This document shows, in pieces, positions 14,227 to 56,697 of a stretch of 64,000 nucleotides of DNA. Every line of letters starts with the position of its first letter. The stretch's first letter is position 1. Position numbers and translations under genes: made by a program. The notes below the pieces were generated by a model. It searched no databases, was not told the DNA's origin, and saw only the letters and a list, made by a program, of their open reading frames with translations. The stretch is from NCBI RefSeq assembly GCF_054482595.1, contig NZ_CM137008.1, one strand, 5' to 3'.

Positions 14227-14703
14227 ATGAAACTCATCAGTAACGATCTGCGCGATGGCGATAAGTTGCCGCATCGTCATGTCTTTAACGGCATGGGTTA
14301 CGATGGCGATAATATTTCACCGCATCTGGCGTGGGATGATGTTCCTGCGGGAACGAAAAGTTTTGTTGTCACATGCTACGACCCGGATGCGCCAACCGGC
14401 TCCGGCTGGTGGCACTGGGTAGTTGTTAATTTACCCGCTGATACCCGCGTATTACCGCAAGGGTTTGGCTCTGGTCTGGTAGCAATGCCAGACGGCGTTT
14501 TGCAGACGCGTACCGATTTTGGTAAAACCGGATACGATGGCGCAGCGCCACCGAAAGGCGAAACCCATCGCTACATTTTTACCGTTCACGCGCTGGATGT
14601 AGAGCGTATTGATGTCGATGAAGGAGCCAGCGGCGCGATGGTCGGGTTTAACGTTCATTTCCACTCTCTGGCAAGCGCATCGATTACCGCGATGTTTAGT
14701 TAA
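14227..14703 (+). CDS. ybhB: PEBP/kinase-inhibitor family protein YbhB (158 aa)
   Basis: 158-aa ORF downstream of bioA; last host gene before the prophage junction. Confidence 0.85.
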   Translation: MKLISNDLRDGDKLPHRHVFNGMGYDGDNISPHLAWDDVPAGTKSFVVTCYDPDAPTGSGWWHWVVVNLPADTRVLPQGFGSGLVAMPDGVLQTRTDFGKTGYDGAAPPKGETHRYIFTVHALDVERIDVDEGASGAMVGFNVHFHSLASASITAMFS

Positions 14704-14793
14704 TCACTCTGCCAGATGGCGCAATGCTATCTGGTATCACTTAAAGGTATTAAAAACAACTTTTTGTCTTTTTACCTTCCCGTTTCGCTCAAG

Positions 14794-14808
14794 TTAGTAT
14801 AAAAAAGT
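14794..14808. other. attR core (P-O-B' junction, tailspike side)
   Basis: ttagtataaaaaagt = reverse complement of lambda core GCTTTTTTATACTAA with one substitution at the phage-side end; preceded by host cgctcaag, followed by lambda-P-arm-like sequence. Confidence 0.85.
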
Positions 14809-14954
14809 TGAATGTGAAACGGTAAAAACAATTAATATCAACAGCTTATAATTGATTCAGTCTAAAAAATAGACTGCATAATGCTACAAAACACAACATA
14901 TCCAGTCACTATGAATCAACCACTTAGATGGTATTAGTGACCTGTAACAGAGCA

Positions 14955-14996
14955 TTAGCGCAAGGTGATTTTTTTGTCTTCTTGCGCTAATTTTTT
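14955..14996. terminator. lambda sib/tI-like hairpin in residual b-region
   Basis: ttagcgcaag N20 cttgcgctaa followed by tttttt; resembles lambda sib retroregulator region as recalled. Confidence 0.5.
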
Positions 14997-15340
14997 GTCA
15001 ACACACTGGGTTAGCTGAATTTACAACCATGCTCAGTATCTCGATAAGCGCAGAGAAATGATGCAGTGGTGGGCGGATTGGCTTGATGAAAAAGTAGAGT
15101 GAGCGACCTTAATAACTATCGAATAGCACAAAGCCTTGCAGTCCAGTACAAAGCTTTGTGTGCATCAGTTTTGTCTTATCAACCACAGCAAGTCATCGAT
15201 CGATTGAGACTTGGATGATAGACTTCATGTCTTTGATTATTAGCTGACAAAAGAAATGTTAAAGCTATTTGCAAAGTACACCTCGATTGGCGTGCTGAAC
15301 ACACTTATACACTGGGTGCAACGGAATCCCAGGCGCACTA

Positions 15341-17266
15341 TTATTTAGCTTGAACCGTTAATATTTTCCCTCCAGAATATTCTGTAAGATTACTTATTTC
15401 ATTAGCCAAAAGCGCTTTGAACATATTTCGGTCCTGCCCGAAAACAACGCCAGAAAAGAAAGTCCCAAGGTTGCGGTAGCCGCCTACGGTCGGCATACGG
15501 ATAAACAGGTAAGACGTACCCTCGTACGTGCCGGTAAACCAAGCATCATAATCTGTGAGAGATTGGTTATCACAGTGAGCAGCTCTAACTAATTTTGCGC
15601 GGGTAGAGATATTGCTGCCTACTGTATTAAGGTCATACGCACCCGATATAGGATTAAGATCTTCCCCGCTGCGTAATGTATAAATAGTCCCAATGCACCC
15701 TCGTTTCCCATACTGACCACCAACGATACGATAATACGGCCCAGCAGACTGGTCTGGATTCGGCAACGCCATATCCCGACACATAGTGGTACTGAACGTT
15801 GGTATGGTTGCCAGCCCACCAAGATTACCTAATGTAGCGAAAGTTGCAGTTTTCGTGTCGTATGAATTCCTTTGAGGCCACGACGTTTCAAACTTATTGC
15901 TGTACACGATTTCTAACTTAGCACCGTTAGTTAAACGGGCCATCGCGCCATTGAAAGTAGTGGTCGAGCTGGCAATTAGTTGCTTAATACTTACTTTAGC
16001 ATAACCAGATAGGTCAAACATGTAGCTACCTGCAGCCTGCGTTTGATCGTACAGATGTATATTATCTATCTGTAAGTTAGCCCCGGTGCCCTTAATAATC
16101 GTACCGCTGTTCTGACGTGAAGGTTGTTCACAACCTAAAGACGAAATGCTGTACGAGCCTGCGTTAAAAATATACGGAATCCCAGCGCAATCGTCAGCGG
16201 CTAATGGACCAATTTCACAATATGAGCCCGTCAACTCAAAGGCACAGTAGTTTGTTTTAAACGCGTTACATTGGGATACTACGTAGCTTGCCCCCCCATG
16301 TATATGAATACCACCATATATCCCGGTAGCGTCGGAACCTTGGACAACGATTTCGCGGATGGAAACACCAACGAAGGTATTGCCGCCAAAATACATCCCC
16401 CATTTTTGCGCAAGGATAAACAGATCACTAAATTCCTGGTATACGGCGGTATTGGGAGTGTAATACCCGTAACTATCCGTTGTATCGTCCAGGATGCGTA
16501 GTCCACGGACAACATTACCACGTTTACCCTTGTTATAGAAAACAGCGTTAATATCCTGAGTTCCTACCGCCGTTTTGCGAATAATGGATGCACGACCCTC
16601 CCCGACGAATCGGCTACCATTTGGTTGATAGTATTTCTCATTGTAAACATCTTCCAAATCGTAAAGAAGAATAGAGTCCGATATCTCATATTCGCCAGCG
16701 GGCACAAATATAGTTTTTCCCAGTTGCGCGGATACAAGCGATGCTCGATTAAAAGAGAGCGTCCAATCTGGATCTGAATCCAGTTTAAAGTCCAGTACAG
16801 AAATAGTTTCAGAGTTTTTCTGGTGTTGCGTTCGATTTACGGCCCCGTTAAATGGTTGCCGAACAGCTATCTTCGCATCATTAACAATAGTAGGACCATA
16901 GTCTTGCGCCAACTCTGACCTTAGTTGATCAGGGTCATACTTAAGCACATTCGGAAAATAGAACTGCTGTGCACCATATGCATCATAAACAGCCATAGAA
17001 TGGCCTTGCACAGTTACGAACTTGGCAATCTGTCCGTTATATACAGGATACCCGCCAGCGTTAATGATGATTGGCTGTGCAACAGGAACGTGAGAACCGT
17101 CTTCATTCTCTACATAAACCTGAATCTGGTTTTCAGGATTTACCGGGTCAGTGTCAATTTTTCCGATATAAATTTTGCCATTGGCAACCGCTTTAAAAGA
17201 ACGCGCCATAGTGAAGAGTTGCGAAGGCATACTCACTACAACATTGGCATTTATTGAATCTGTCAT
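15341..17266 (-). CDS. P22-type tailspike (641 aa): conserved N-terminal head-binding domain, divergent receptor-binding body
   Basis: N-terminus [62 protein letters not shown]... closely parallels the P22 gp9 head-binding domain (recalled); remainder is beta-helix-like with different sequence. Confidence 0.85.
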
Positions 17267-17465: not shown

Positions 17466-18194
17466 TTATGCAACATTACTCCCATGAATCAGGTGTTGTA
17501 GTGCTTTAACACCTTCCTCATTGTAGCGGAATGCTTCCACCTGTTTGCTGGAATGCGCAGATTTATCCAGGAAGAACTTCCCGTACTGCTCAGTTTTGAG
17601 GTTGTTTGCGTTAGCAATGCGACCAATCTTGTTGGCCGTTACCCCAAGCTGCTCTGCAACCTCCCCTGCTGAGTAGTAATGCTCTTCTATTGCTGGAAGA
17701 GGTATTGCATTAAAACCAACGATCGGGTTGATTATGCTTGCTGCCGCAGTCTGCTTTGCTTCCGGCGCAAGATTTGGCATCAAATCGAACAGATTGGTAA
17801 CAGCTTCAACCGTCATTTTCAATGTTCGCGCCTGGCGATACTCAACAAGTCCACTAGACGATTTACCGCTTTTAATGTGCGCTTCTTGCATACTTTCAAG
17901 TTGGTCTACAAGTGAGCGGCGAACAGCTTTAGATTCACGAGCAGCCACTCGAAGGGCTTGCTTAATTGACATAACAACTTTTTCAGAAGTTGTCTTGTTT
18001 GATTTTTGAACTACGAAAATTTCGTAGTGCTCACCTTCAAGTTCATCCTTAATGCGTGCAATAAAGTCGTTATTGCGGACTTCTTTTTCCCCGCACTGTC
18101 TACGAGCATGATTGACCATCTCTAACAGGTACTGGCTATCAATGGTTTTATCCGTGACAACGGATCCGATGTTTGCTACATTCTTAAAAGTCAT
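17466..18194 (-). CDS. Putative antirepressor-like/regulatory protein (243 aa)
   Basis: ORF 17466..18245 trimmed to ATG at 18194 with AAGGA RBS; C-terminal region loosely resembles KilA-C/ORF6C-type antirepressor tails; sits between ant and tailspike. Confidence 0.35.
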   Translation of the reverse strand: MTFKNVANIGSVVTDKTIDSQYLLEMVNHARRQCGEKEVRNNDFIARIKDELEGEHYEIFVVQKSNKTTSEKVVMSIKQALRVAARESKAVRRSLVDQLESMQEAHIKSGKSSSGLVEYRQARTLKMTVEAVTNLFDLMPNLAPEAKQTAAASIINPIVGFNAIPLPAIEEHYYSAGEVAEQLGVTANKIGRIANANNLKTEQYGKFFLDKSAHSSKQVEAFRYNEEGVKALQHLIHGSNVA

Positions 18195-18282
18195 TAGGCA
18201 TTCCTTATGTGGTAGTAAGGGTGTGACATAGGCCGCCAGCAGCACACTGGCGGTTTTCTTTTTGCGCCGTCCGGCGCACCAA

Positions 18283-18909
18283 TCAATGAATCCATTCCTC
18301 GCCGCGCAGTTTTGCCAGCATTGGCTGAGCGTTCTTTACGACAAAATTGTTGGTATCAAGATTCTTCATTTCACGAAGAAGTGATTTCTTGGTTTCTTCT
18401 GACATGTAGCGAGTCTCATATGCAATATCGTAAATCCTTCCTGAAAGCTCAGAACCAATTTGCTTCATTCCTGGGTAGATGTGTTTGCACATTTGTTGAC
18501 TCTTCTCCATCCACAATTGTAAGTAGCAGAGATTAACCAGTTCTTCGTCAGTAAACTGTTTTGCAATCGGTGAGCATTCTGCCTGCCGATCCAAAATATC
18601 CAGCACCCAGCGGCGGAACTCTTTGGCTACCTGAGTGCGAGCAAACATCGCGATTAGGTGGGCACCGCGTAGTGAGAAAACACGCACTTTTTTGCGATAA
18701 TTTCCTGAGGTACTCACTTCGAGTACCTGAGTCATTCCGGCGCTAAACTCATCGCTATACTTGTTATAAATCATTGTTACTGCACGACTATTTGCGTATT
18801 TAAGTGCAGATGCAATATTAGATGATGTAAACCAAACACCATGCATATCACGGGTGGGCACCAATTCAACTCCGTGGAAGTTATAATCTGATTTTGCTAC
18901 AATATTCAT
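18283..18909 (-). CDS. ant: Antirepressor with Bro-N domain (about 208 aa; start uncertain)
   Basis: FHGVELVPTRDMHGVWFTSSNIASALKY...FSLRGAHLIAMFARTQVAKEFRRWVLDIL is Bro-N-like; ATG at 18909 has AAGGAA RBS; longer frame to 18993 would overlap arc. Confidence 0.6.
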   Translation of the reverse strand: MNIVAKSDYNFHGVELVPTRDMHGVWFTSSNIASALKYANSRAVTMIYNKYSDEFSAGMTQVLEVSTSGNYRKKVRVFSLRGAHLIAMFARTQVAKEFRRWVLDILDRQAECSPIAKQFTDEELVNLCYLQLWMEKSQQMCKHIYPGMKQIGSELSGRIYDIAYETRYMSEETKKSLLREMKNLDTNNFVVKNAQPMLAKLRGEEWIH

Positions 18910-18982
18910 GTTAGTTTCCTTGCATACGGTTACTGACATAGAGGCCCGGTTTGTGTTCACGCACTGCCGGGCTTCACTATTT

Positions 18983-19156
18983 TTACTGGGCATTAGCTCT
19001 TTCCTCTCTCAGGCTTTTAGCCAGTCGCTGCACAATCGCAGAGTTGATAGAAATTCCATCCATTTCAGCAACACGTCTAATCTCCTCCTTCATTCGCGCT
19101 GGCAAACGAAGCTGGAAACTTTGACTTTTACGACCTGTGTAAAGCACATCTTTCAT
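18983..19156 (-). CDS. arc: Arc-like ribbon-helix-helix repressor (57 aa)
   Basis: MKDVLYTGRKSQSFQLRLPARMKEEIRRVAEMDGISINSAIVQRL resembles P22 Arc (MetJ/Arc RHH fold). Confidence 0.7.
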   Translation of the reverse strand: MKDVLYTGRKSQSFQLRLPARMKEEIRRVAEMDGISINSAIVQRLAKSLREERANAQ

Positions 19157-19183
19157 AAGTAATCCTCCCACAATGATACCAAC

Positions 19184-19199
19184 TTGGTTCTAGAACCAA
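19184..19199. promoter_or_regulatory. immI operator candidate: perfect 16-bp palindrome
   Basis: TTGGTTCTAGAACCAA in the divergent arc-mnt intergenic region. Confidence 0.6.
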
Positions 19200-19267
19200 T
19201 TTAACACCATTTATTTTGATGTCAAGTTGGTGCTATTGTTTAGCGAACATCTTTACGTTGAGGTCAT

Positions 19268-19588
19268 ATGAGCAAGTTCCCTAGTCATGAAATGGATAGG
19301 TTCAATATCAGGCTTCCTGCAGGAATGCGGGATGCTATAGCTGAACGAGCCAAACGTAACGGCAGATCAATGAACTCAGAGATTGTTCAGATACTGGAAG
19401 ATGCCTTGAATGCAGAAAATACACTCGGGGAAATAGCAGATAAAATCAACAGCGTCTCGGTTCCGCTAAATGTTGATGCGCTAGTTCAACTTCAAGCCCA
19501 GGTTATCGCCATGCAAAAAGAAATACAGGAAAAGTTCAGAGAGCAGAACGAAAAGTTGAGAGAACTGCTAAACAAAAAAACCACCTGA
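19268..19588 (+). CDS. mnt: Mnt-like repressor (106 aa)
   Basis: N-terminal RHH motif FNIRLPAGMRDAIAERAKRNGRSMNSEIVQILEDAL and C-terminal coiled coil ending KKTT, as in P22 Mnt (recalled). Confidence 0.75.
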   Translation: MSKFPSHEMDRFNIRLPAGMRDAIAERAKRNGRSMNSEIVQILEDALNAENTLGEIADKINSVSVPLNVDALVQLQAQVIAMQKEIQEKFREQNEKLRELLNKKTT

Positions 19589-20481: not shown

Positions 20482-22347
20482 TCACTGCTGTGTTGCCTCA
20501 GTGGCAAGCAGCGGTCTGATGGCATTTGCAGCGTTACTTAATGCTCTTTCATAGGCTGGCGTTCCTGCTTTGGTGTTTGCCAGACGTAAGAGCGCATTCC
20601 TGGCCATAGGGCTTTCATAAACCCTCGACATAAGGCCAATCCCTGTTTCCCCAGCCAATAGCGCGCCTCCGGTTTTTAGGTTACCAATAACCCTTACCAA
20701 AGGCGCGAGTGTCATGCCAGTCTTCGTCACAACATTAGCCTCAGATGCTCTTTTGGTAGCATCGAGAATAGATAACATCCCCTCTATCTCTTTTCCGTTC
20801 TTCCCACCAAATACAGTTTTAAACACCTGACCATTTGCTTGTTTTTGCAGCTTGCCAAGCTCGGTCATCATTTTCTGAGGGCTGTCACCTACCTTGTCAG
20901 CTATTTTGCTGATATATGCCGCCCTTAGCATGTCTTTACCTTTTTGATCGAGTTTCCCGTACAATCGAGCTATATCTGACCCATATTGTCCATACACAAT
21001 GGTATTTACAGCCTCGGGAGTTAAATCTCCTTTGTTTAGAACGTTTTTAAGGCGCGTTTGAGTTGCATGTGTTGCCATTTTTGCATAATCAGCTTTTCCC
21101 GCTCTCCATGCTGAAGCATCTTTTGGGCTAAGTCCTTTCGCTATAGATTTACTAAGGCTATTGGTTAGCGAGTTATAGACCCTGTCGACCATTGTTTGCG
21201 ACATTGATGGCAGAACTGTACGATCGCCTTTTACGTCAATGCGGAACTGAGTTCTCAGCTTATCAAGTAACTCAAAGGCATCATCTCCATTTGTTATCTC
21301 CTGAATGGCATTCTTATAATCATTAAGCGCAGAAATGGTCTGGGTGTCAGAAACACCTTTAAGTTTCCCAAGTTCGTTTACTGCTCCGTCGATAGCTCTT
21401 ATGGCGCCACTTGTATCAACTGGCTTTCCAACCATTCTTCCTGACAGGCTGTTTAGTTTTGACTTGGCTAACGATTTTTCCCTTGCAACGCCTGACTTTA
21501 GACTATCAACGACTACAGATGGATCGTAGTCGCCGTATTTTTCGGTGAAGCGATTAACAAGCTTGGTTCTGGCATCCTGCTGTGCGGCTCTCATTGGTCC
21601 AGTACCAGCTATGACTCCTTCTGAGTAACCCTGCAGTTGATTGCCAAGTTTTGTTTTTGGAGGAACTACATCTGATGTCATAACTGGTACATCTGCCGCA
21701 GCGGCACGCTTGAGCAATTGCTGATCTGCTGGTGATATTTCGCCACGAACAGCAGTAATTCCACGCCCTATTCCCTTTGCTGCTGCGGAAAGAACACCCT
21801 GAGCGGCAAGGTTAACTCCGGCATTTTTAGCTGCATTTTGTGCGAAATCGCCTTTCTGATTTGCGGCCTCTGCCAGTGATCCAATAGCCATGCTTCCTGC
21901 CGTTCCAACTCCTGGAACTAAATACCCGCCAATTGTTTCTCCAGCTTGCGCATAAGGGTCTGTCGGTCGCTCGACAGGGCGATAAACATCATCCAAAACC
22001 TTGGGGCCGCCAAGCCCCTGGCTGATTGCATTAATCAGACTTGCGCCACCCTGCAATACGTCAAATGGTATGTTTACCAGACCGCGACCAGCCTGCTCTG
22101 CAATTTGCCCTGCACTTTGACCACCAGTGAGCCAATCGCCAGCTTGTTGCATCAATGATGGTTCTTCTTTCTGCTGCTGAGGCGGAGGGTATGCTGCATA
22201 AAACTGATCTCTTGCTTCAGCCCATTTGTCACCAGCCTTAGGGGCAACAACCTCATCAAAATATTGCGCTTGAGCCTGTGCTTTCTGTTCTTCAGTTAAC
22301 GCCTGATACTGTGGAGAGGCGATAACATCTTTCCATGCTTTAGCCAT
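20482..22347 (-). CDS. P22 gp16-like ejection (internal virion) protein (621 aa)
   Basis: Size and order after gp20; last gene of the P22-type ejection-protein set. Confidence 0.75.
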   Translation of the reverse strand: MAKAWKDVIASPQYQALTEEQKAQAQAQYFDEVVAPKAGDKWAEARDQFYAAYPPPQQQKEEPSLMQQAGDWLTGGQSAGQIAEQAGRGLVNIPFDVLQGGASLINAISQGLGGPKVLDDVYRPVERPTDPYAQAGETIGGYLVPGVGTAGSMAIGSLAEAANQKGDFAQNAAKNAGVNLAAQGVLSAAAKGIGRGITAVRGEISPADQQLLKRAAAADVPVMTSDVVPPKTKLGNQLQGYSEGVIAGTGPMRAAQQDARTKLVNRFTEKYGDYDPSVVVDSLKSGVAREKSLAKSKLNSLSGRMVGKPVDTSGAIRAIDGAVNELGKLKGVSDTQTISALNDYKNAIQEITNGDDAFELLDKLRTQFRIDVKGDRTVLPSMSQTMVDRVYNSLTNSLSKSIAKGLSPKDASAWRAGKADYAKMATHATQTRLKNVLNKGDLTPEAVNTIVYGQYGSDIARLYGKLDQKGKDMLRAAYISKIADKVGDSPQKMMTELGKLQKQANGQVFKTVFGGKNGKEIEGMLSILDATKRASEANVVTKTGMTLAPLVRVIGNLKTGGALLAGETGIGLMSRVYESPMARNALLRLANTKAGTPAYERALSNAANAIRPLLATEATQQ

Positions 22348-23711
22348 TAATCACCCCATAGTGAAGAAAAGTTACTGCCGGCTGCTGGCTGTGATACCTG
22401 TGTAGGTTGAGATTGCTGCCGCTGAGATTTACCAACATTAACGTTATATTGTTGGTTGTAATTGTCGGTATATTGCTGAATGTCGCGCATTGATTGTTGC
22501 AGTGCTTCAGGGCTTGAGAAATCAACCTGTGGCATACCTTGAAAATACATCTTTGCTTCTGCAACGGTGTTGATACCGGATGCCCCCATGTCTCTGGCTG
22601 CTGCAATGCCCTGATTCTGCATCTTTCCTTGGATTCGCTGTGCAGCGTTGTATAGTTTCCTCTGATCACCACCAGATGCACGGCTACGAATATCTGCACC
22701 AAGAGCAGGAGAACCTGAAGAGCCTGTAATGCCAGTCATGAAGCCAAGATCGTCAATTGATGCACCAGAAATTGCATCAAGATCTTTCTTCATTGCGTAA
22801 TTCTGCGCACTTGCTGCCGATGTAGCCGGAGCGGCAATAGAGCCAGCAGGAACGCGAACCATATTCCCCTCGTTGTCGATACCTTCGTAGAACGCATTAG
22901 CCCCAGCGCCGTGAAGCTTCCCGCCTACCGTTACAGTTCTGCCATCTGCTAACTGAACTGTACGCTCATTATTCCCAACCGACCCTTTCATTGATGCTCT
23001 CTGCATCGATAAATCCTGACCGCGCATCGTGATATTCTGACCACGTGCTGTTAGCGCCTCTCCAGCCTTATTGCTGCGGATTGTCTCTGCCAGCTGGCCT
23101 CGGTCAATCTCACGACCAACCATCTTATCCTGAACAGCAAACGCCTTTTCTGGCCCAAGTGCACCGAGAGACATAGTAGTCAGCATGTGTGATAACTGCT
23201 CTGGATTCTGGATACCTGTCTGAATCATCCAGTCAGCATTCGCACCCACGCGATTTAACCTGTCCTTGTTGTCAGTAATGAATTTACTGTAGGCTTCCGG
23301 TCCCTGAGAAAGAGCAACGTTAGCCCTCATGGCTAAATCGCCCATATCGTTGCGTTGCTGCTCATTAAGACCGGAAAACGCCTGTTGTGCCTGTGCAACA
23401 AACGCTGGATTTTCCTGGGCAAACTTAAATAGTCCCGATGGATCACCAGAAGCCCATGCATCAGCGTGAACCTTATTGAACGCACTAATCGCTTTCTGTT
23501 GCTGTTCCTGCTTATAAATATCAGCAACTCCAGCCAGACCACGTAACGCGGTCAGACCAACGTTATTTGCACCTGAGCGAGCCAGTTCATTGTTTTCGCG
23601 GATCAGACCAAGCGTTGCGTTAATGTCGCTTGCCTTTGGCGCATTCTCATTTTGCGTACCGATGCCAGCCAGAAAACCACCAGAATTAATACCCTGTTGC
23701 CACGTAGCCAT
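22347..23711 (-). CDS. P22 gp20-like ejection protein (454 aa)
   Basis: Position between gp7 and gp16; Gln/Ala-rich translation. Confidence 0.7.
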
Positions 23712-23721
23712 TGATTACCCC

Positions 23722-24414
23722 TTAAAACAACGAGCCAAGCAGACCAAGACCGCCGCCGATCGCAGCCCCCCACGGAGTTGATGAACCAATTAATTTCGCA
23801 AGTCCGGCCCCAGCAATAGCACCAGACGCACCTCCGCCAATAGCAGATTGCATTGCTGATGGTCTGTTGGCATTTGCCGCTGCAAGAGCCGCACTTTGCT
23901 GCGAAATCTGACTCATATTGTTGGCATATGTTTGCCCGGCGTTTGCCTGACCTTGCAGTGCGCCAAGACCAATATTTGCCAGATTCTGGTAGTTGTTCAT
24001 CTGACCAGATAGCCATTGCTGACCAAGCGTTGGTGCGATTGTTGCTAACTGATTACCGGTTGCAGTGGAACCCAATCCACCTGTTGCTTCCGCTGCCGCC
24101 AGACTCTGATAGCGAGCCTGACCAGCAAGATCTTTGTACTGCTGAGAGTTGTAATACTGGTTAAGTGCCTGACCTTGCCCTTCCAGAGACGATAAGTTCT
24201 CGAGGCTGTCGACATACTTATCAGCCAGAGGAGTAAACGGCTTCAGGTTGTTCATGATGGTGTTGAACTGCTGATTTTGCAGGTCTGCGGCATACTTCTG
24301 GGCTTCTGCTGCATACTTTGCGCTTTTATCAGAGCTACCACCTTTCCCGCCTTTTTCAGGGCAATAAGGTTCCTCGCCGCGCAGTTTTCTGCCCAGCTTA
24401 AATGCATATAACAT
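23722..24414 (-). CDS. P22 gp7-like ejection protein (230 aa)
   Basis: 230 aa, Gln/Ala-rich with Gly-rich hydrophobic C-terminus; position after gp14. Confidence 0.7.
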   Translation of the reverse strand: MLYAFKLGRKLRGEEPYCPEKGGKGGSSDKSAKYAAEAQKYAADLQNQQFNTIMNNLKPFTPLADKYVDSLENLSSLEGQGQALNQYYNSQQYKDLAGQARYQSLAAAEATGGLGSTATGNQLATIAPTLGQQWLSGQMNNYQNLANIGLGALQGQANAGQTYANNMSQISQQSAALAAANANRPSAMQSAIGGGASGAIAGAGLAKLIGSSTPWGAAIGGGLGLLGSLF

Positions 24415-24416
24415 GG

Positions 24417-24872
24417 CTATCTCCCGTGATTCAGGAAGTCGATTAGTTCTTCGCGTGTGGCGCTGTAAAACGTCACGTCATCCACGCCTTTGAAGTATTT
24501 CTTGATGGTTCCTACACGATTAAGGCCAATCATTGCGCAATACATCTGACCGTGGCGGAATTTGCGTGCGGCGAACGATGTGACGCACTGAACGGTGGTG
24601 TTAGTCAGAATGTATCGCCAGAACGCCAGCCCGATTTCCTTGCTGAATCCACGAACCTCTGGCAGGTACATGGCGTGGCAATCGAATGTCAGCGGCTGAA
24701 TCTCCTGATAGTAAACAATGCCGCCGAACTGCCCGTGCACGTTCACCTCAAAGTAACGGCAATCATGTTTATAGTCGTATCCATCACCGTTGTTGCTCCC
24801 GGCAATAATGTCAGGGTGATTTCCGACTGCTTCTATCAGGTCGATGTTTCGCGTTGGTTTGAATGTAATCAT
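24417..24872 (-). CDS. gp14-position virion protein (151 aa)
   Basis: Position between tail needle gp26 and gp7 in the P22 gene order; assignment positional only. Confidence 0.5.
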   Translation of the reverse strand: MITFKPTRNIDLIEAVGNHPDIIAGSNNGDGYDYKHDCRYFEVNVHGQFGGIVYYQEIQPLTFDCHAMYLPEVRGFSKEIGLAFWRYILTNTTVQCVTSFAARKFRHGQMYCAMIGLNRVGTIKKYFKGVDDVTFYSATREELIDFLNHGR

Positions 24873-25573
24873 CAGTCAATCAACCCATGAGTCCGTAATG
24901 CATCTTCCAGAGCTTTGATACGCTGCCGCGCCTGCTGCAATCCTGTAGCCATAGCCGACACCTCAGACCGTGTGTATGTGGCACTTACCGTGTATGTCTG
25001 GTTAGCGTTGAATGAGCCGCGAAGAGCTGTACCTGTAGCCGCTGTCCACCCTGTCTGACGAGCACCAATAACCTTGGTGCCGCCGACCGAATAGGATGTT
25101 GTTACATTGAGGGGAGATGCCAGCGATTGTGTTGCAGTGGCTGTTTTCGATACATAGTCGTCCTGTAATGCAGAAATGTTGCTCTCAGCAGTCGTAACCC
25201 GGCCATCAAGAGCGCTGACGTCAGCCTGTAAAGTGACTATTTCTCCTTCAGCCGTGGTTAGTCTGACATCCAGCGCTGCAATTGCCGCAGTATTCGCAGC
25301 AATACGGATTTCATGGTCATCTACTTCAATGCGGAGCTGACGAATTCTTTCTTCGTGATCGACCAGAATCACATCCTGCTCATCATTCCTGACTTGTGCG
25401 TCATAAGCGCCCTGTCCGGCCTCGTTGGCCTTGTTCGCCACGTTACCAACATCAGTACCCTGTGCGATAACGTACAGCAGATACGACTGCGAGAAGATAT
25501 TACGTGGAAGTATTGATGTATCGAGCCGCGTCGCCTGGATGATTACCGGCACATTGAGATTCGAATCCGCCAT
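24872..25573 (-). CDS. P22 gp26-like tail needle (233 aa)
   Basis: [43 protein letters not shown]...[13 protein letters not shown] parallels P22 gp26 along its length (recalled). Confidence 0.85.
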
Positions 25574-26991
25574 TACTCAATCCTTATCTGAGCGCCAGAC
25601 AGAGTGACAGGTGACTTCGTGATAACGCGCAATTTGAAGCCAATGTTTTTCCTGATGCGCCCTACTTTCTTCCACAAAACGCGTTTGTCGTAAACGAACG
25701 GTTCATTCTGCTCAATCATCTGCTCACGACCGTAATTGATGCCGTCAGTGGTTGCAGAGAGGAACAGGCGGTCAGCGTACTGCGCAACGCCAGTTGACGA
25801 TTCAACCTCAAAGTCAAACACTCTGGCGTTATCCGCTTTGAACAACGGAGTAAACAGCAGGTGTTCCTGCTGCTTGTCGTACTGGCTGCTGATATCGAAC
25901 TGCAGTTTCCCGGTAACAGATTCCAGCTTATCGCCGCACGTTATCTGATTGCCTTCGTAAATGAAGTCGATAGCGCGGTACACATCGTCATACAGGCCTG
26001 TTTTCAGTACACACCATTGCGGACCATTGGAGCTTGAAGATGCGTCGTACACCAGAACATGGCGCGGAAGATGGATAATCAGCAGCTCATGCGCATCAAA
26101 TCGCAGAGACTCCATCACACCATCAGCCAGTTCATCAGCAGTGTAGGAGCGGAGAATTTTCTCAATGCTCGCGCTGGCGATTGGTGATACCTGACCGGAG
26201 CCGATGATATACACAGACGGCGCACCTGTTGCCGGATTGCTGATGAACGCATACGAATCAGCAAACGGCGTTTTGCAGTAAGTCCCGGCAATGCCTTTCT
26301 GCACCATCAGCGATGGCTGTGCGACATACAAAGCGGCACCAACGGTGGTTGCCCCCGTCAGGGAGAAATATTCAATCGTCGATGAACCAAAGCAGACGAT
26401 GAAGTCTCGCCATGTGCCGATGCCGATGATGCCGTCCGGCTGCGATTCTGCGCGATATTGTGCGCTGTAACGGTCAGGATGCGATTCGTCTTCAAGGTCA
26501 GTGATAAACCATGAATCAGTACCGTCTTTTGACCACGCATAACGCCCACGTAAGCGTGTAATGTCGCGGACTGAACCTAACTCATACTGCGTAAATCCTC
26601 TGTCTGTAGGCCAGTTTGAGACGGTTTTAACCGTGCCATCATAGCGATACTCGACCAGTTGACCATTAACGCCTACTGCCTGTGATGTCCTACCGTGTGC
26701 CATTGATACGCGACCACTTCCGGCAACATCACCGACCTCGCTTTCGCCCTTATACAGCTTGCCGCCACACACGCGATATACAGCATTCTGCGCCATGTTG
26801 TACTCGACGCCGCGCGATACACCGTTCACATCAGATCGTTTGGCAATGCCCGGGAATGAGCGAAGATATCCGCTGCTGTTGAGGATTTCTTTGGGTGTAG
26901 CCAACATATTCACTGGCAGATAGTCGGTATAGTCGGAGTTTCGAAAGTCTTTGCCGACACCTTTCATAAGCGGAAGTTGCTGAATCGGCAT
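25573..26991 (-). CDS. P22 gp10-like tail hub protein (472 aa)
   Basis: 472 aa, same length as P22 gp10; position between gp4 and gp26. Confidence 0.75.
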
Positions 26992-27492
26992 TTATTCGCT
27001 CCCGTTATCGCAAGGTTCCTTCCGGTGGAAGTAATTCCAACCGTTCCACTTCGCCAACTGATTACCGCTACCAACAGGCATACGGTTTGGATAACCGGAC
27101 TTACATTTAGCAGCTTTTGCTCTGTCCATTGCAGACAGTTTGACGAGTCGCTCTTTCCCGTATCTGGCAGTGGTTATAAGTTTTGCAGACGCTTCCAGCG
27201 CATAATCTGGAGCAATGCGGCAGGCAAGGTTGAAAATGACGGCATTTATAGCGTTATTTGATAAGCCGTGCTCATCGCCCGGATCTGGAGCGACATCTGC
27301 ATCAGCAAAAATGTAGCCAACGTTGATCCCAGGTGACGCATCACCGCCAAGCCATTCAGCCATCATCATTTCAAGGTCGTTGACGCCGTCTTCCATAGAC
27401 TGCGGTTCGACATCGGTTAACGTGGCATTTGATGCCACACCGAGCTTACGTAATGCCGCAAGAACTAAATCACCCTTCGTTGTCAGGTTCAT
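26992..27492 (-). CDS. P22 gp4-like tail adaptor protein (166 aa)
   Basis: ORF trimmed to [33 protein letters not shown]..., parallels P22 gp4 (recalled). Confidence 0.75.
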
Positions 27493-27706
27493 CTGCTGCC
27501 GCCTTAGGTTTTCGACCAGGCTTTTTACGCTGTTTTTCTTCTGGCTCTGGCTCCGGCTCTGCAACATCCTTCAAAAGGTCATCAGGATGTGAAAACCAGC
27601 CAGCATCCAGATATTCCTGAAGCTCTTCGGCTTTCACGATTTCAAAGTCGTATCCAACGCCTTTCCATTTCTTCATGTCGCCATGACGAAAGATCATGTG
27701 TGTCAT
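27470..27706 (-). CDS. Small charged protein (78 aa) between coat and gp4
   Basis: ATG at 27706 with GGAGA RBS directly after the coat terminator; Pro/Glu/Lys-rich tail; overlaps gp4 start by 23 nt. Confidence 0.4.
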
Positions 27707-27718
27707 GCTTGTCTCCAG

Positions 27719-27743
27719 ATAAAAAAGGGAGCCGAAGCTCCCT
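27719..27743 (-). terminator. Rho-independent terminator immediately downstream of coat gene
   Basis: minus strand gggagc ttcg gctccc followed by tttttt. Confidence 0.7.
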
Positions 27744-27750
27744 CTGGTTA

Positions 27751-29046
27751 TCACGCGGTCTGGTTAGGCAGACCAACACCAATTGCCTCTGGTCGTACAG
27801 CACATGCTGAATACCACACAGCAATACGGCACTTACCAGACAGAGTGTTGATATCACCCTGCGTTGCGAAGATGCCGTTAACACCAATGCCAGGAATGCT
27901 GAAGGAAGACGTTTTCATACCAGCAAACAGTTCATGGGTTACCGGGATAGGCTGAGACAGCAGACGGATTGAGTCATCAGCCCAGAACACGTTAGCGGTG
28001 GTCGTTGCCACGTTCAGAACGTTTACCGGAGTGGTATCAGCAAGAGAGGTGTTTACGTTAGCGTAAGCCTTCTCTTCTTTTGTCAGTGACGCGTCATCCA
28101 GTGCAATCGGTTTCGGCGTGATTTCGATGTGAGTACCATCGATCACACGGGTGATTGAGAAAGTCGCATCATCAGTCAGCACGTTCTTCGCCATCTGAGA
28201 CAGGAATTTCACACCAGTGAAACTGATTTTGTCGCCGCGCTTAAATCCGGTGGTGGAGGATACGGTCACCGTTGCAACACGGTTGTCGACGTTCTCTTTG
28301 TTACCATCGGTATCAAGGGTGTATGCCTGCGGCTTAAACTTCTGCGCACCAGAAACAGTTACACCAGTAGCGGTTGACTTGGTAACTGCCGGAAGTTTCG
28401 GTGAGCGAAGAATTTCATCAAAGCCAGCAATCTGACGCTGAATAGTACCGTTGTGATACGCATCTTCAGGAACGCGCCCGAAGATGTCACCATCTACAAG
28501 ATTGCGGCCTGCTTTGCGGTAATCGTCAGGGTTCAGGAAGTAACTGATACCCATGTCGCGGTTGAGTTCGCGGGAGAACATCAGTCGCTCTGCATCAGAC
28601 ACAAAATCCCAGCCAGACAGGCCAGTAGATGGACCAATTGCGCGGGTATCGTGAACAACAAGTGAGCCCATTTCGGTTGCCTGTTTGGCAATTGCTGACT
28701 CAATGTTATTCGCCAGTTTTTTGGCGGATGCCTGGATGCGGCGACGGTAAGAACGCTCATCACGCAGGTCATCTGCACGAAGCTCGAAGAAATCGTTATC
28801 CGGATCGCCCATGTTGCACTTCACGGAGAGTTCCAGAATCCCGGTTGCGTTGCCAGTTAAATCCCAGCCAGTCTGGGTTGGCGCTTCCTGCTCAACAGGC
28901 ATCCACACGGTGTTGCTTGAACGCTGCATGGATTCTGCCGGAGGGGTGTATTTTGTCACTTTGGACGCCATTGGCGTCAGGTTCTGGACGGTTTCGATGA
29001 TTTCATCCAGAGCATACGTGACCAGTTGACCTTCATTTAATGCCAT
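27751..29046 (-). CDS. P22-type major coat protein gp5 (430 aa)
   Basis: [54 protein letters not shown]... parallels P22 coat protein throughout (recalled). Confidence 0.9.
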
Positions 29047-29957
29047 TATCGAATTCCTTTATTCAGTTGCGCCTTAAGCTTGCGGTACGTCTCTACATCC
29101 CCTTTGTTTGCTGCCGCTTCCATCTGCTTTTCAATCGCAGAGATATTTGCAGCAACAGCGTGTCCCTGAATGGGTTCATCAGGTAACGGGGCTTCTGAAA
29201 CAGGCTTGGCTCGAGGCTTGAGAGTTAAACGTTCTGACAGTCGAGTGAGTTCAATCAGCGCGGATTGCCCGTCCATCGCCAGCAACTGGCGTGTTTTCTC
29301 AGGATTAGCACCAAGGTGATACATGAGAGCAGCGGATTTCTCCGGGAAGAGGCGCATGATGTCGGCACCGACTGCTGGCGGCACCAGTTGCATGAATGCA
29401 TCCTCTTTCTCCTGATAGTCAGGGATATTGAGCTTTTCCGCTGCGTCGTAGTGCTTACGGGCTGCCTCGACGTATTGCGCTGATTGCTGGGTGAACTCCT
29501 GAGTTTTGCGACCCTGCTCGGCGACAGCCTGGCTTCGTGCGTCCATAGCCTTGATCTGCCATTCACTGTTTGCCTGCTGGAAGGCAGCCAGTGCTCGGCT
29601 CTGGTCATAGTCGTACTTAGCCAGCGCATCTTCGGAAAGATAATCGTTAGGGTCTGGTTGTTTTGGTAACTCAGGGTTCACCCGCAGGTGCTCCGGCAAC
29701 TCCCCACGCTTAACCGCTTCCATCTGCTGCTCAAGCTCACGCTGGCGTTTGCGTTCGATGCGGCGACGGGCAAATTCAGCATTAGTTGCCGGGTCTTGTT
29801 TTGGTTTCTCATCGTCTTTCAGGACAATCTCGAAGCCTTCTTCCTGACCTGCGTTGTCGTTGGCATTATCGACAACTAAGCCATCAGCAGATGCCGCTGC
29901 ATGATTGCCGGGCAGGGTTAATTCTTCAGAAGCCTGAATGTCGGTGGTTTGGTCCAT
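29046..29957 (-). CDS. P22-type scaffolding protein gp8 (303 aa)
   Basis: 303 aa, highly charged helical protein directly upstream of coat. Confidence 0.8.
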
Positions 29958-29970
29958 GGTTAACTCTCTC

Positions 29971-32136
29971 TTATTGAGGTGTCTCGGCTACTCCGCCGGA
30001 GGGGATTTGAACTTGACGCATAAGATTCGCGAAATCCATGCGTTGTGAATGAGTCTGGTCTGCATCTTTAAGAAGCAGCTCAGCGTTAGCACGAGCATCT
30101 TTGCTGCGCTGTTGCTGGAATTGACCTACGAGCTTGAGGTACTCACGCAGTTCTGCCTGCTTGTCGAGGTCCATATTGTTGAAGATTTCCGCAATCTTCG
30201 CGGCGTTGAGTTGGTTTTGGGCTTCAACCTTGGCGGCTTCAACCTGAATCTGCGCCTGTTGGTTCTCTGCCTTGAGCAATTCAGCCTGACCTTGCAGAAG
30301 GATACCCTGCGCCTGAATTTGCTCTGCTGATGGCTGCTGCGGCTGCTGTTGCGCCTGTTGTACCATCTCCATCTCTTCAGGTGTTTCTGGTTTCTTCAGC
30401 CCCATCATCACCAGTTGCTTGTTCGCGTACTCTCGCATCATCTCGACGCCTTTACCGTCAAGCAGCGTGAAGTATTGCAGCATCAGTATCTGGAACTCTG
30501 GAGTACCTTGCGGAACCTTGGTTAGTAATTCCTGAATCTCTGCGCGGTTCTGTTCCTTCATGCTCTGGAAGGATGGTCCAACGTCTGTATAGCACTCATA
30601 GCGACCACGAATGTCGTTGAGTGTGACCACATTGCCGGACTGGTAATCGACAACTTGCGCATAGAGTTGAACGTCTTTCTCGCTTCCATCTTCAAGTGTC
30701 AGCGTTACATGACGAGGAACGTCATAAATATCATTGACCATTGAGGCATAAATCTCGCCATCACGCCGCATTGCGGTAGCCAGGTTATCCTGAAACACGT
30801 ATGTCTCAAGGTCTGCCCGCATGTTCAGTTGATTGACAGTATCGAAAGCGACCTGAGAGTTTGCTGCCTGCGCATCCACGCCAAGACTAGCCACCTCTTT
30901 CACTGCGTTGGTGGCAGCCTCAAGCATGTAAGCGTTGGCTTGCGGCACTTCAGGGTTTTCCATGTAGGAGATTGGACCAATCGGCAGGTCGTTGCCGTTT
31001 TCATCGGTCTTGTTCTGCAAATAGTACGGATAGTCATCATTTCCACCGTACATGTATTCGTAGCCTTCGATTTGCTCAGGGAAGAAGGTCGGTTTCTTCT
31101 TCGGTGAACGAGCAACAATATCGGCGTTGAATGACATGATCATGTTACGAAGGCGTTGACCGTCTTTCGTCAGCCTTACCACTCCTTCGTAGCACTCCTT
31201 GTCACCAGCGAATGACCATTCTCCATACACTGGAACGATTGGAATATGCTCTCCGGCTATCTTCTCGCGGTCTTTCAGTATCTGCGTGCAGGTGATGATC
31301 GACTTATACACACGCCGACGCTTCACCTTGCGCTCTGCTACCTTCATGAATCCACGATTAGCCAGGTCGTCGATGACGTCTTTGATATCCTGCTGGTAAT
31401 AGCTGACCGGCTCACCTGTCAGCGGGTCGCGGTAGATGAAGACCTTCTCTTTCTTCTCTTCTACCTCGTAATACTCAGCGACGTAGACGACATCATTCGA
31501 TACCCACGGAAACAGCCATGTGTCGTTCGGATTCTGGAAAGATGGCAGGGTGTCAGGATCAATACCGTAATCCTCTGCGAACTCTTTCCAGCCATTGCGT
31601 GACAAAGCGTTAATCACCGTGCAGTGCTTAGCGTCGCTCTTATCCATCTGCTTGCTGTTGGCGTCCCATATGACGTGTGAGCAGGCTTCATGGATTGGCA
31701 GGCGTCGGATTACCTGATTGTTGCTTGTTGGATCGTTGTCTTCGTACTGCGTGACCAGACGCCATGCACCAACGCCAGACTCTATCTGCTCACGAACGCC
31801 AACGTTAACAGCAATCTTTGCCGTGTTATGGCGCATATCAGTACGATACATCCCCATCAACACATCGGCTGCATCAGGATTAGCTCCGTCTTTTGGTCTG
31901 AATAGAACGTCGATAGGGTTCCGGCGCATCTCTGCGACCAGTTTCCTGACCACTGGGCGAACAACATCGAATTGTCCGCGATATTGCAGGGTGGTGTAGT
32001 TTGATAGCCAGTCATCCCATTGCGACACTCGGCTAAAAAACAGGTCATTTGTCGCCTCGGTTCTGGCTTCATCGCTCGCCATCCAGTCTGCGTCAAACTT
32101 ACACAGAATGGAATTGAGTCTGTTTTCGTCGGCCAT
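29971..32136 (-). CDS. P22-type portal protein gp1 (721 aa)
   Basis: [45 protein letters not shown]... parallels P22 portal, including Gln-rich C-terminal barrel region. Confidence 0.9.
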
Positions 32137-33636
32137 TTAAGTTCTCCGTGCGATGGGCCTGATTGGGGCTGGTATCTTTTTCTCTTTTGGTTTTTTGATG
32201 TCGCGCATCATTTTGGCGAAGCGGCGCATCATGTATGCATAGCGAACAGCTGAGAGAACGTCGTCGTTAAGCTTGACGATTTTCCCGTTTTCATCACGGT
32301 GATAGAGGCGGAACTCCTCAAAGAATGGCTCACAGGTGTTGAATACTTTGAAGCGACCGTCGAGCATCATGTCTCGCAATTCAGTGATGCCAGGCTCAAC
32401 AGCATTACCGCCATCAGGCCATGTCGCATGCTCCTGCAACATCATAAATCCAGCGTCTGCATACTGCCCTTTGAGCTGCTCACCGCCGCCCTTCTCGTGC
32501 TGGTTTCCGTCATGAGGCCATGCTGTTGGCACTTTATGCGCCCATGATTTAACCGCTCCCCATGCCTGAACGGCTGTTTTTTCTTTCGCCTTCCACACGC
32601 GTGAAACGTAGATTGTGTCTGCGTCCTTATCCCACCAAATCTGAACCTGCGCCTGCGGGTGATCCCATCCGAAATCCATCCCGCCAATTACGTAGAAGTG
32701 ATCAGGACACTCGAACGGCTGACACTTAATCGTCTCTTCCGGTATCTGGAAGATTCGACCACTACCCATCGTAGGAATACCGCGAGCACGCGCCTCTCTC
32801 TCATGCTCAGGATAGGATGCGATGATTTGCTCTTTCTGCTCGTCGGTATAGTGCTCAGCGTCATAGATGGTCATGTTGACCACTTTCTGCGACTTGCTGG
32901 GATTCTTCAGGAACTTGGTAACAACGTCAGACATCCCCATCAGCGGGGTAAATGTCAGAATTGAGAATTGCCCGTATTTGTTGGTACGGGTAAGACCTTC
33001 GCCATAAATGCTGTATGGTGGCTCTTCGTCAAACCACACGCCGTGGATTGTGTCACCCTGCCAGCGAGCACGGCCTTGCGAGTATGGCTTGAAGTAGCAG
33101 ATTGAAATGCCATCTTCAACGCCATCAGCCGTGTGATGCTTAACCAGAAGATGATCAACAAGGTTCGGAAAGAAAGGAGACTTCTTCCAGCTAATGATGT
33201 CTTCTTTCGGTATGGAACCGTAGCCAGGCTCATCATTCTCTTCGATACGACCGCACAGGATGCGTTGAGTCGTTTTGGTTACAGTCTCGTTTGTCTCTCC
33301 ACCAATCCAGAAGACAACAGGCTCATAGAAACGCTTACCTTTCCACTCACCGCCATATTTACCATCAGCAGGATAGCCTTTTGTGCCCGGATAACGACCG
33401 GTAAGGTGAAACGCGACTTCAGCAGCACCAGTAAATGACTTACCAAGCTGGTTACCAGCCATAAAACATCGCTCTGGATAGTCATGCCCGGCGTCGATGA
33501 ACTCACGCTGCTTGCTGTATGGCGTAAATTCATATAGCAGGTGTGTGTTCCGGTAGTTCTCTTCTTCTTCGAGTAGCTCGAGCAACTCGATTTGCTCTTC
33601 GTCGCTCAGGTTATCAAGAATCGCGTCCAGTTCCAC
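32137..33636 (-). CDS. Terminase large subunit, P22 gp2-like (499 aa)
   Basis: 499 aa; ATPase and nuclease domains; position between terS and portal. Confidence 0.88.
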
Positions 33637-34102
33637 GGTTGAATAGCTCCTTGATACGAGAGCGCCGCTTATCGCGATCTCCCTTATCAGGTGTCACGTC
33701 TTCAACTTGCGACTGCTCTTTGAGGCCCAAATCACGGGCGATGATGTTAGCGTTGAGAAGGTCAGCGGCTGCGCCAGAGAATTTCTGGTCGTAGATGACC
33801 TGTTCTGCTCGCGTAACGACTTCAGATAAATCTTCTCGCAGGCGATATGTGCGCCATGTTTCAAGCGTCACATCAATGAACAGAGTGAGGCCGGTAATGG
33901 TCATCGCTCGCATCTTGGCGATAGGCTCTTGTATTACTTCACCCTGATACGAGAACGCCTTCATCTCCCATAGCGGGTTAGCTTCCACCCACTCGAAGTA
34001 TTCACAACAAGCAGCCCACAGCGCCTCAGGCGATTCGAATTTAGGATTTCGCCCATGACTACTGCGGGCCTCCCAAAATCGGTTGCCCTTTGGTGCTGCC
34101 AT
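33614..34102 (-). CDS. Terminase small subunit, P22 gp3-like (162 aa)
   Basis: [55 protein letters not shown]... matches P22 gp3 as recalled. Confidence 0.88.
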
Positions 34103-48961: not shown

Positions 48962-49930
48962 ATGAGTGAAGTAACAGATTTAGTTGTTATTGAAAAAGCA
49001 AATGCAATGACTGTATTTCAGTCTGCCGACCAGATTGAAGAAATTCTCCAAAAGGTTGAACGTGAAGTTATGTCATTTGTGCCTGATATCACAACGGCAA
49101 AGGGCAGAAAGGAGATCGCTTCTCTGGCGTATAAAGTTGCGCAGACGAAAACATATCTCGATGGTCTTGGCAAAGACCTTGTTGCTGAACTGAAGGAAAT
49201 TCCAAAGCTAATTGATGCCAACCGCAAGACAGTGCGCGATCGCCTTGATGAACTGAAAGCCAAGGCGCGCCAGCCTCTTACTGATTATGAGGAAGAACAG
49301 GCGCGGATTAAAGCCGAAGAAGAAGCTAAGGCAGCAGCTGAAGCTCTCGCAAAGCAAATTGAGTCTGACCATGAAATAGCGATTTTGATGGATCGCGAAT
49401 TTGACCGCCAAAGAGAAGAGGCAAGACTCAAAGCGGAGCAGGAAAAGCGAGAGCATGAAGAACGATTAAAAAGAGAAGCTGAAGAGAAAGCCAGAGCTGA
49501 AGCCGAAGCAAAGGCAAAAGCCGAAATTGAAGCAGCAGCAAGACGAGAAGCAGAGGCTAAGGCCGCAGCGGAACGTGCAGAGCGTGAACGCATTGAAGCC
49601 GAGCAACGAGCACAGCGCGAAGCAAAAGAGGCAGCAGAACGAGCTGAAAGAGAAAAGCATGCGGCAATTGAAGCAGAACGCCGTAAAGCACAGGAGGAGG
49701 CAGAACGAATCCGGCGCGAGGCTGAAGCAAAAGAGCAAGCCAGAATAGCAGAAGAAAAAAGAATCAAGGACGAAGAAGAGCGTAGAGCAAAGGATAAAGC
49801 TCACCGGAAAGAAGTAAATAACAAAATACTTGCTGACCTTATCAAGGTTGGCGCATCAGAAGATGTTGCTAAAAATATCATAACAGCCATCGTAAAAGGC
49901 GAAGTATTCGCAACAAAAATAACCTACTAA
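48962..49930 (+). CDS. Hypothetical protein with long Ala/Glu/Lys/Arg coiled coil (TolA-like central region, 322 aa)
   Basis: GGAGG RBS then ATG 48962; about 150 residues of EAKAKAE/AERAERE-type repeats. Confidence 0.55.
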   Translation: MSEVTDLVVIEKANAMTVFQSADQIEEILQKVEREVMSFVPDITTAKGRKEIASLAYKVAQTKTYLDGLGKDLVAELKEIPKLIDANRKTVRDRLDELKAKARQPLTDYEEEQARIKAEEEAKAAAEALAKQIESDHEIAILMDREFDRQREEARLKAEQEKREHEERLKREAEEKARAEAEAKAKAEIEAAARREAEAKAAAERAERERIEAEQRAQREAKEAAERAEREKHAAIEAERRKAQEEAERIRREAEAKEQARIAEEKRIKDEEERRAKDKAHRKEVNNKILADLIKVGASEDVAKNIITAIVKGEVFATKITY

Positions 49931-55342: not shown

Positions 55343-55561
55343 ATGTACTTGACACTTCAGGAGTGGAACGCACGCCAGCGACGCCCAAGAAGCCTTGAAA
55401 CAGTTCGTCGATGGGTACGCGAGTGCAGGATATTCCCTCCTCCGGTTAAGGATGGAAGAGAGTATCTGTTCCACGAATCAGCGGTAAAGGTTGACTTAAA
55501 TCGACCAGTAACAGGTAGCCTTTTGAAGAGGATCAGAAATGGGAAGAAGGCGAAGTCATGA
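55343..55561 (+). CDS. xis: Excisionase Xis, lambda-type (72 aa)
   Basis: MYLTLQEWNARQRRPRSLETVRRWVRECRIFPPPVKDGREYLFHESAVKVDLNRP matches lambda Xis as recalled. Confidence 0.93.
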   Translation: MYLTLQEWNARQRRPRSLETVRRWVRECRIFPPPVKDGREYLFHESAVKVDLNRPVTGSLLKRIRNGKKAKS

Positions 55562-56682: not shown

Positions 56683-56697
56683 TTAGTATAAAAAAGC
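56683..56697. other. attL core (B-O-P' junction, int side)
   Basis: ttagtataaaaaagc = reverse complement of GCTTTTTTATACTAA; 56610..56682 matches lambda P' arm as recalled; followed by host aggc... Confidence 0.9.

Follow-up and report, generated by a model that had tools for sequence, protein, structure and literature searches.

The window (the whole 64-kb stretch of DNA that was analysed) contains a structurally complete, P22-like (Lederbergvirus-type) prophage of 41.9 kb that spans positions 14794–56697 and lies between ybhB and ybhC. Its tailspike gene was found exactly where the preliminary description had placed it, next to the attR end of the prophage. The features of the prophage and its flanks, apart from the short interval beside the tailspike that is listed further below, are as follows.

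14227–14703: ybhB, flanking the attR side of the prophage
14794–14808, minus strand: attR core ACTTTTTTATACTAA, one mismatch, adjoining ybhB
14809–15006, no strand assigned: lambda-type attP P arm and sib/tI terminator, with a hairpin at about 14957–14997
15341–17266, minus strand: tailspike gene, an intact open reading frame (from the ORF list) of 641 amino acids with an ATG start
15341–16924, minus strand: receptor-binding body, residues ~115–641, predicted right-handed parallel beta-helix and C-terminal beta domain
16925–17266, minus strand: region coding for the head-binding (anchor) domain, residues 1 to ~114
17466–18245: antirepressor-type gene (phrog_1726)
18283–18993: antirepressor-type gene (Bro-N and P22_AR_C)
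18983–19171, minus strand: Arc-family gene, divergent from the next
19268–19588, plus strand: Arc-family gene, divergent from the previous one
20482–22347: gp16 homologue, upstream of the immI-like region
55539–56609, plus strand: lambda-type integrase, functional integration module (PF09003, PF00589)
56683–56697, minus strand: attL core GCTTTTTTATACTAA, exact, adjoining ybhC
56744–58027: ybhC-like pectinesterase gene, flanking the attL side of the prophage

The prophage and the tailspike anchor

A pattern search for the att core returned two matches, cf. 0.01 expected. The attL core is exact, and the mismatch of the attR core relative to the canonical lambda core is at the first base (A for G). 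The integrase combined the lambda Int arm-binding domain (PF09003, E 7e-33) with PF00589 (E 2e-40), and this arm-binding integrase, the 15-bp cores at both ends and the ybhB–ybhC interval together make up a lambda-type integration module. At the tailspike end, window positions 14790–15006 aligned with lambda 27742–27528 at 86% identity over 218 bp (blastn), covering the core, the P arm and the sib/tI hairpin, which confirmed that the lambda att P-arm/sib homology noted earlier beside the tailspike is genuine. Divergence of the P arm from lambda was greatest near the core.

The virion genes (20482–34102, minus strand) followed P22 in order and size (16, 20, 7, 14, 26, 10, 4, coat, scaffold, portal and terminase), and related genomes annotate them as portal, terminase, coat, gp10 and gp16. 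As in P22, the tailspike is the last late/virion gene, located past the ejection-protein genes and immI. The immI-like region (17466–19588), with its two antirepressor-type and two Arc-family genes, lies just upstream of the tailspike. In addition to the complete virion module, the prophage retains lysis and replication regions, the lambda-type int and both att cores.

The 641-residue tailspike matched phrog_21710 over its full length (E 4e-272) and was 100% identical to a protein from an E. coli genome (P0001). Compared to ~80 relatives of 640–641 amino acids, the ORF is full length, and E. coli prophages carry ~80 near-identical copies of it. A consensus scan 3' of the gene returned no intrinsic terminator. 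Residues 4–114 carry the Head_binding domain PF09008 (E 4.8e-65; 217 bits, cf. a curated cut-off of 24 bits). Residues 1–110 were identical to Sf6 gp14 at 99 of 109 positions (91%) and to P22 gp9 at 81 of 109 (74%). A PDB sequence search returned the N-terminal domains of these same two proteins, and the anchor was also matched by fold when the modelled tailspike was compared with 1lkt in Foldseek (TMt 0.77). The likeness to P22 gp9 that had been described for the first ~110 residues was therefore borne out, but the anchor is closer to Sf6 gp14; judged from its sequence, the head-binding domain is the Sf6 allele, and "P22-type" is correct at the family level. Homology at the DNA level, to Sf6 gene 14 (88%) as well as P22 gene 9 (71%), ended at 16925/16926, which corresponds to codon ~114 of the tailspike. 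Residues 1 to ~114 make up the conserved anchor, through which the trimer would dock to the tail hub (the gp4/gp10 homologues).

Relics between the lambda sib region and the tailspike

Contrary to what had been described, the tailspike gene is not directly next to this lambda homology: 335 bp separate the end of the sib region from the tailspike stop codon, and this interval contains relics of an integrase gene and of gtrA.

15014–15102, plus strand: 3' stub of an IntS integrase (Sf6/HK620-type, argW), stop codon included
15125–15163, no strand assigned: conserved hairpin-like 39-mer (GCACAAAGC...GCTTTGTGTGC), downstream of int
15256–15315, plus strand: gtrA 5' stub of 20 codons, MLKLFAKYTSIGVLNTLIHW; the open frame leaves homology and runs to 15348

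The integrase stub preserves the last 26 codons of an IntS gene (15019–15096), which were 100% identical to residues 359–384 of the 385 of Sf6 IntS, and the stub was 95% identical at the DNA level to an intact intS. Residues 1–20 of P22 GtrA matched 15256–15315 at 100% identity (tblastn, E 1e-8). In the near-identical locus of E. coli WL164, both stubs are annotated by PGAP as pseudogene fragments, the gtrA stub being a "GtrA family protein, incomplete" there and in MB06022. The gtrA stub forms an open frame of 30 codons (15256–15348) that is convergent with the tailspike gene and shares 8 bp with its end, stop codon included.

The hairpin between the two stubs was 92% identical to lambda 27510–27472 and 77% identical to P22 21171–21217, the latter being located between attP and the gtrA promoter, and it also occurs in attλ prophages that carry other tailspikes. 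In the window, lambda and P22 it is found just downstream of int and att along the direction of int transcription. Its distance from sib is 18 bp in lambda and 118 bp in the window, where the intS stub intervenes. It might serve as a second terminator or as a linker for recombination. A relic of a tRNA-type attP had at first been expected between the IntS stub and gtrA; since an Sf6-type attP sits beyond int, no such relic is expected there, and this candidate was dropped.

An intact gtr cluster comprises GtrA (~120 amino acids), GtrB (a GT2 protein) and a serotype-specific GtrC, and the first 20 residues of GtrA were the sole remnant found. Homologues of GtrB and GtrC were not detected by tblastn in the 64-kb window, nor was one of Oac in the prophage (all E > 0.3), and a hydrophobicity scan returned no polytopic membrane ORF anywhere in the prophage. 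One multi-transmembrane ORF (49466–49804, minus strand) runs antisense within a longer ORF and was taken as spurious. Overall, the reported lack of conversion genes next to the tailspike held insofar as the prophage has no intact gtr or oac gene, there or elsewhere, but a 20-codon gtrA stub is directly adjacent. P22 does carry gtrABC next to the tailspike and att, as the preliminary description had it: directly past gene 9 come gtrC, gtrB and gtrA, then a promoter, the attP core and int. In argW prophages, a tailspike that is 68% identical (P0084; L009/L010) is followed by intact gtrC (PF14264), gtrB (PF00535), gtrA (PF04138) and IntS. By comparison with this layout, the gtr deletion comprised ~2.6 kb, taking gtrA from codon 21 onwards and all of gtrB and gtrC. 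The prophage is thus one without a functional conversion cluster, whose ancestor had a gtr cluster at the tailspike.

In E. coli CH468 and MB06022, the same tailspike and gtrA stub adjoin an intact intS and tRNA-Arg at argW, and MB06022 was 100% identical to the window over 15019–15318. The presence of the gtrA stub beside an intact intS indicates that the gtr deletion was independent of the swap to the lambda module. In MB06022 (L008, 7346–11498) the tailspike lies in a prophage stump truncated by an IS3-family element, in which a group II intron (ltrA) sits; dsdX comes directly next. The junction between lambda sib and the IntS stub (window 14950–15070, at least 80% coverage needed) was found in 755 of 5426 complete E. 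coli genomes and is common to attλ prophages with other tailspike bodies. It is old and common, a fossil of an argW-type integrase in a very common attλ prophage lineage.

These observations bear on how the locus came to be without conversion genes. The preliminary description had attributed this to a lambda att module being joined directly to the tailspike, and the nearby lambda sib/P-arm homology, in a prophage devoid of intact gtr or oac, agrees with such an origin. However, the interval from the sib region to the tailspike contains the gtrA and IntS stubs, gtrA is truncated also where intS is intact (CH468 and MB06022), and the lambda/IntS junction is shared by prophages with other bodies; these three observations refute a direct join in its strict form, and we consider even a looser form highly improbable.

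Decay of the gtr cluster could also be read as part of a wider decay, in which the tailspike gene would be a relic of a defective prophage and no functional tailspike would be made. In line with this, there is the mismatch in the attR core, and CH468 and MB06022 keep the gene in heavily degraded remnants (IS element, group II intron, truncated genes). However, the window ORF is as long as those of its ~80 relatives, the virion, lysis, replication and integration functions and both att cores listed above are all retained, and the WL164 copy of the body is 99.7% identical to that of the window. We therefore regard a decaying relic as improbable and treat the gene as the tailspike of a structurally complete prophage.

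The receptor-binding body and its glycan target

Beyond residue ~120, global alignment gave an identity of ~22% to P22 and 29% to Sf6, values that, for all the sequence comparisons indicate, are noise except for residues ~118–293 relative to Sf6. These residues (118–293) matched the first beta-helix coils of the Sf6 tailspike (E 6e-8; profile E 2e-20). The P22 body and the HK620, Det7 and endosialidase structures gave no sequence match to the body, a profile search of PDB gained N-proximal matches only, and no similarity to the endorhamnosidase subtype of P22 gp9/Sf6 gp14 extended across the whole body. Apart from the Sf6 match, the body thus appears to have no sequence relative among characterised tailspikes. 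The divergence from P22 gp9 that had been described was hence upheld, and, as the body is unrelated to that of P22 gp9, a different glycan specificity can reasonably be inferred.

An AlphaFold2 monomer model built from 27 homologues was all-beta (mean pLDDT 79), with pLDDT > 90 across residues ~185–460 and moderate confidence only for the last 180 residues. When this model was searched against PDB with Foldseek, the top matches were the full-length Sf6 and P22 tailspikes, and no close relative of the body was found among solved structures. In the model, the body is thus of the right-handed parallel beta-helix class, the fold for which a check had been proposed. The body family is small (6 proteins at E < 1e-30 among 1.84 billion representative proteins). 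Four acidic residues in the beta-helix, D197, D260, E380 and D418, were conserved across all full-body relatives and are candidate catalytic residues.

By analogy with the P22, Sf6 and HK620 tailspikes, residues ~115–641 would bind and cleave a host surface polysaccharide, most likely O-antigen; trimer formation, enzymatic activity and the O-antigen target are all suggested by this analogy. The tailspike of a prophage usually matches the O type of its host. WL164, which has the same attλ locus, carries an O160-family wzx/wzy locus and an O9-family cluster, and CUWW10, with a 72%-identical body, carries an O160 locus, which is rare (15 of 5426 genomes). In contrast, MB06022 has an O159-family locus with a frameshifted wzy and CH468 an unnamed O-antigen cluster, and these two genomes carry prophage remnants only. 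Within WL164 (L012, 4278–28243), the O160-family wzx/wzy genes lie between galF and gnd, and the O9-family ABC-transporter polymannose cluster lies between wzzB and his. As the O-antigen loci differ among carriers of the body, the match between tailspike and host O type is not demonstrated for it. Carrier genomes (O160 with O9, O160, O159 and unnamed) gave no consistent link to a serogroup, so no target was assigned; O160 is a weak lead.

The three different O-antigen loci among the carriers could also mean that the substrate of the body is not O-antigen but a capsule or exopolysaccharide, such as colanic acid or a group 1/4 K antigen. A match of residues 2–454 to phrog_8280, described as a "tail spike protein with colanic acid degradation activity" (E 3e-113), points the same way, but a large share of that score comes from the common N-terminal anchor. 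Moreover, the ancestral cassette had gtrABC, which modifies O-antigen and is the usual partner of an O-antigen-specific tailspike; the rare O160 locus recurs in 2 of the 5 body carriers, one of them with a merely 72%-identical body; and the two hosts with discordant O loci hold nothing more than degraded prophage remnants. We consider a capsular or exopolysaccharide target unlikely and retain O-antigen as the probable one.

Taken together, we put the probability at roughly 0.85 that the gene codes for a tailspike, built from a conserved anchor and a beta-helix body, that belongs to a structurally complete, P22-like prophage at attλ, and that the region has a history of module exchange.

Cassette exchange and known systems

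The receptor body was found in 5 of 5426 complete E. coli genomes. In other phages, it occurs at 85–92% identity fused to T7-type (PF03906) and TSP1/gp66-type (PF18668) anchors. Proteins with the body on non-P22 anchors at 72–92% identity (P0075–P0080, P0083 and P0085) include a 910-amino-acid "tail protein". Its presence on such anchors points to recent transfer, with temperate and probably lytic phages as the partners. Module exchange, which had been proposed at the joint with lambda, is indeed visible, but its boundaries are codon ~114 of the tailspike and the region downstream of the int stub, not the lambda joint. Since the lambda junction is shared with other prophages and the gtr deletion is independent of it, exchange involves a cassette away from that joint: the exchanged unit is the receptor body together with the remnant of the conversion region, bounded by two conserved flanks.

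A sequence of events that would account for the locus starts from an ancestor with the Sf6-type layout, in which the tailspike gene converged on gtrC, gtrB, gtrA and intS, with attP beyond int. Loss of ~2.6 kb would then have left 20 codons of gtrA. Separately, a widespread lineage would have swapped most of intS and its attP for the sib-attP-int-xis segment of lambda, leaving 26 intS codons. Finally, receptor-body cassettes would trade by recombination between the head-binding region (up to codon ~114) and the int-stub/hairpin region. We infer the order of these events and their mechanism, namely homologous recombination at the flanks.

The tailspike is therefore of a textbook modular type in a common E. 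coli prophage, and its novelty is limited to a rare, uncharacterised subtype of the receptor domain; swappable receptor domains on conserved anchors and conversion genes beside tailspikes are established for P22-like phages. The locus illustrates cassette boundaries clearly (codon ~114 and the int-stub region) and shows how past module exchange can be read from pseudogene stubs. With its target identified, the rare subtype could be a source of a glycan-specific depolymerase or of a typing reagent. More tentatively, and with doubt outweighing confidence, the body might found a depolymerase subtype for a rare E. coli glycan, for which O160 is the sole lead, and the IntS stub and hairpin might serve as a downstream "landing pad" for cassette trade between prophages with argW IntS and those with attλ Int.

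Among known systems, we compared the locus with that of Sf6, a Shigella phage whose gp14 is an endorhamnosidase tailspike (PDB 7sg7, 7ukj and 2vbk). The two share the anchor (91% identical), a weak but significant similarity over body residues 118–293, and an ancestral layout of tailspike, conversion gene(s), IntS and then attP beyond int. In contrast, outside that stretch the two bodies are unrelated in sequence, Sf6 has oac instead of gtrABC, and Sf6 resides at argW with an intact IntS, whereas the window prophage resides at attλ with lambda Int. P22 shares the head-binding domain of gp9 (74%), the position of the gene past immI (arc/mnt-like and ant-like genes) and the first 20 GtrA residues, which are identical to the gtrA stub. 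However, the body of gp9 has no detectable sequence similarity to that of the window tailspike, and P22 has its attP between gtrA and int, an intact gtrABC and an integrase of its own that acts at thrW.

Among deposited phage proteins, the window tailspike body is covered solely by a hypothetical protein of Salmonella phage SKML-39 (residues 113–640, 37% identity, E 4e-89), which differs in its N-terminal anchor, is functionally uncharacterised and comes from a much larger phage genome (159.6 kb). The CUS-3 tailspike has an annotated boundary sequence where its anchor meets the body. E. coli Lederbergvirus tailspikes, including those of HK620 and CUS-3, combine a conserved anchor with an exchangeable receptor-binding domain (RBD) that is also transferred across phage genera, and the region downstream of the receptor-binding protein is variable and sometimes carries an O-antigen modification gene (Pas et al. 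2023, PMC10408124). The occurrence of the window body on several types of anchor is an instance of the same principle of anchor/RBD exchange.
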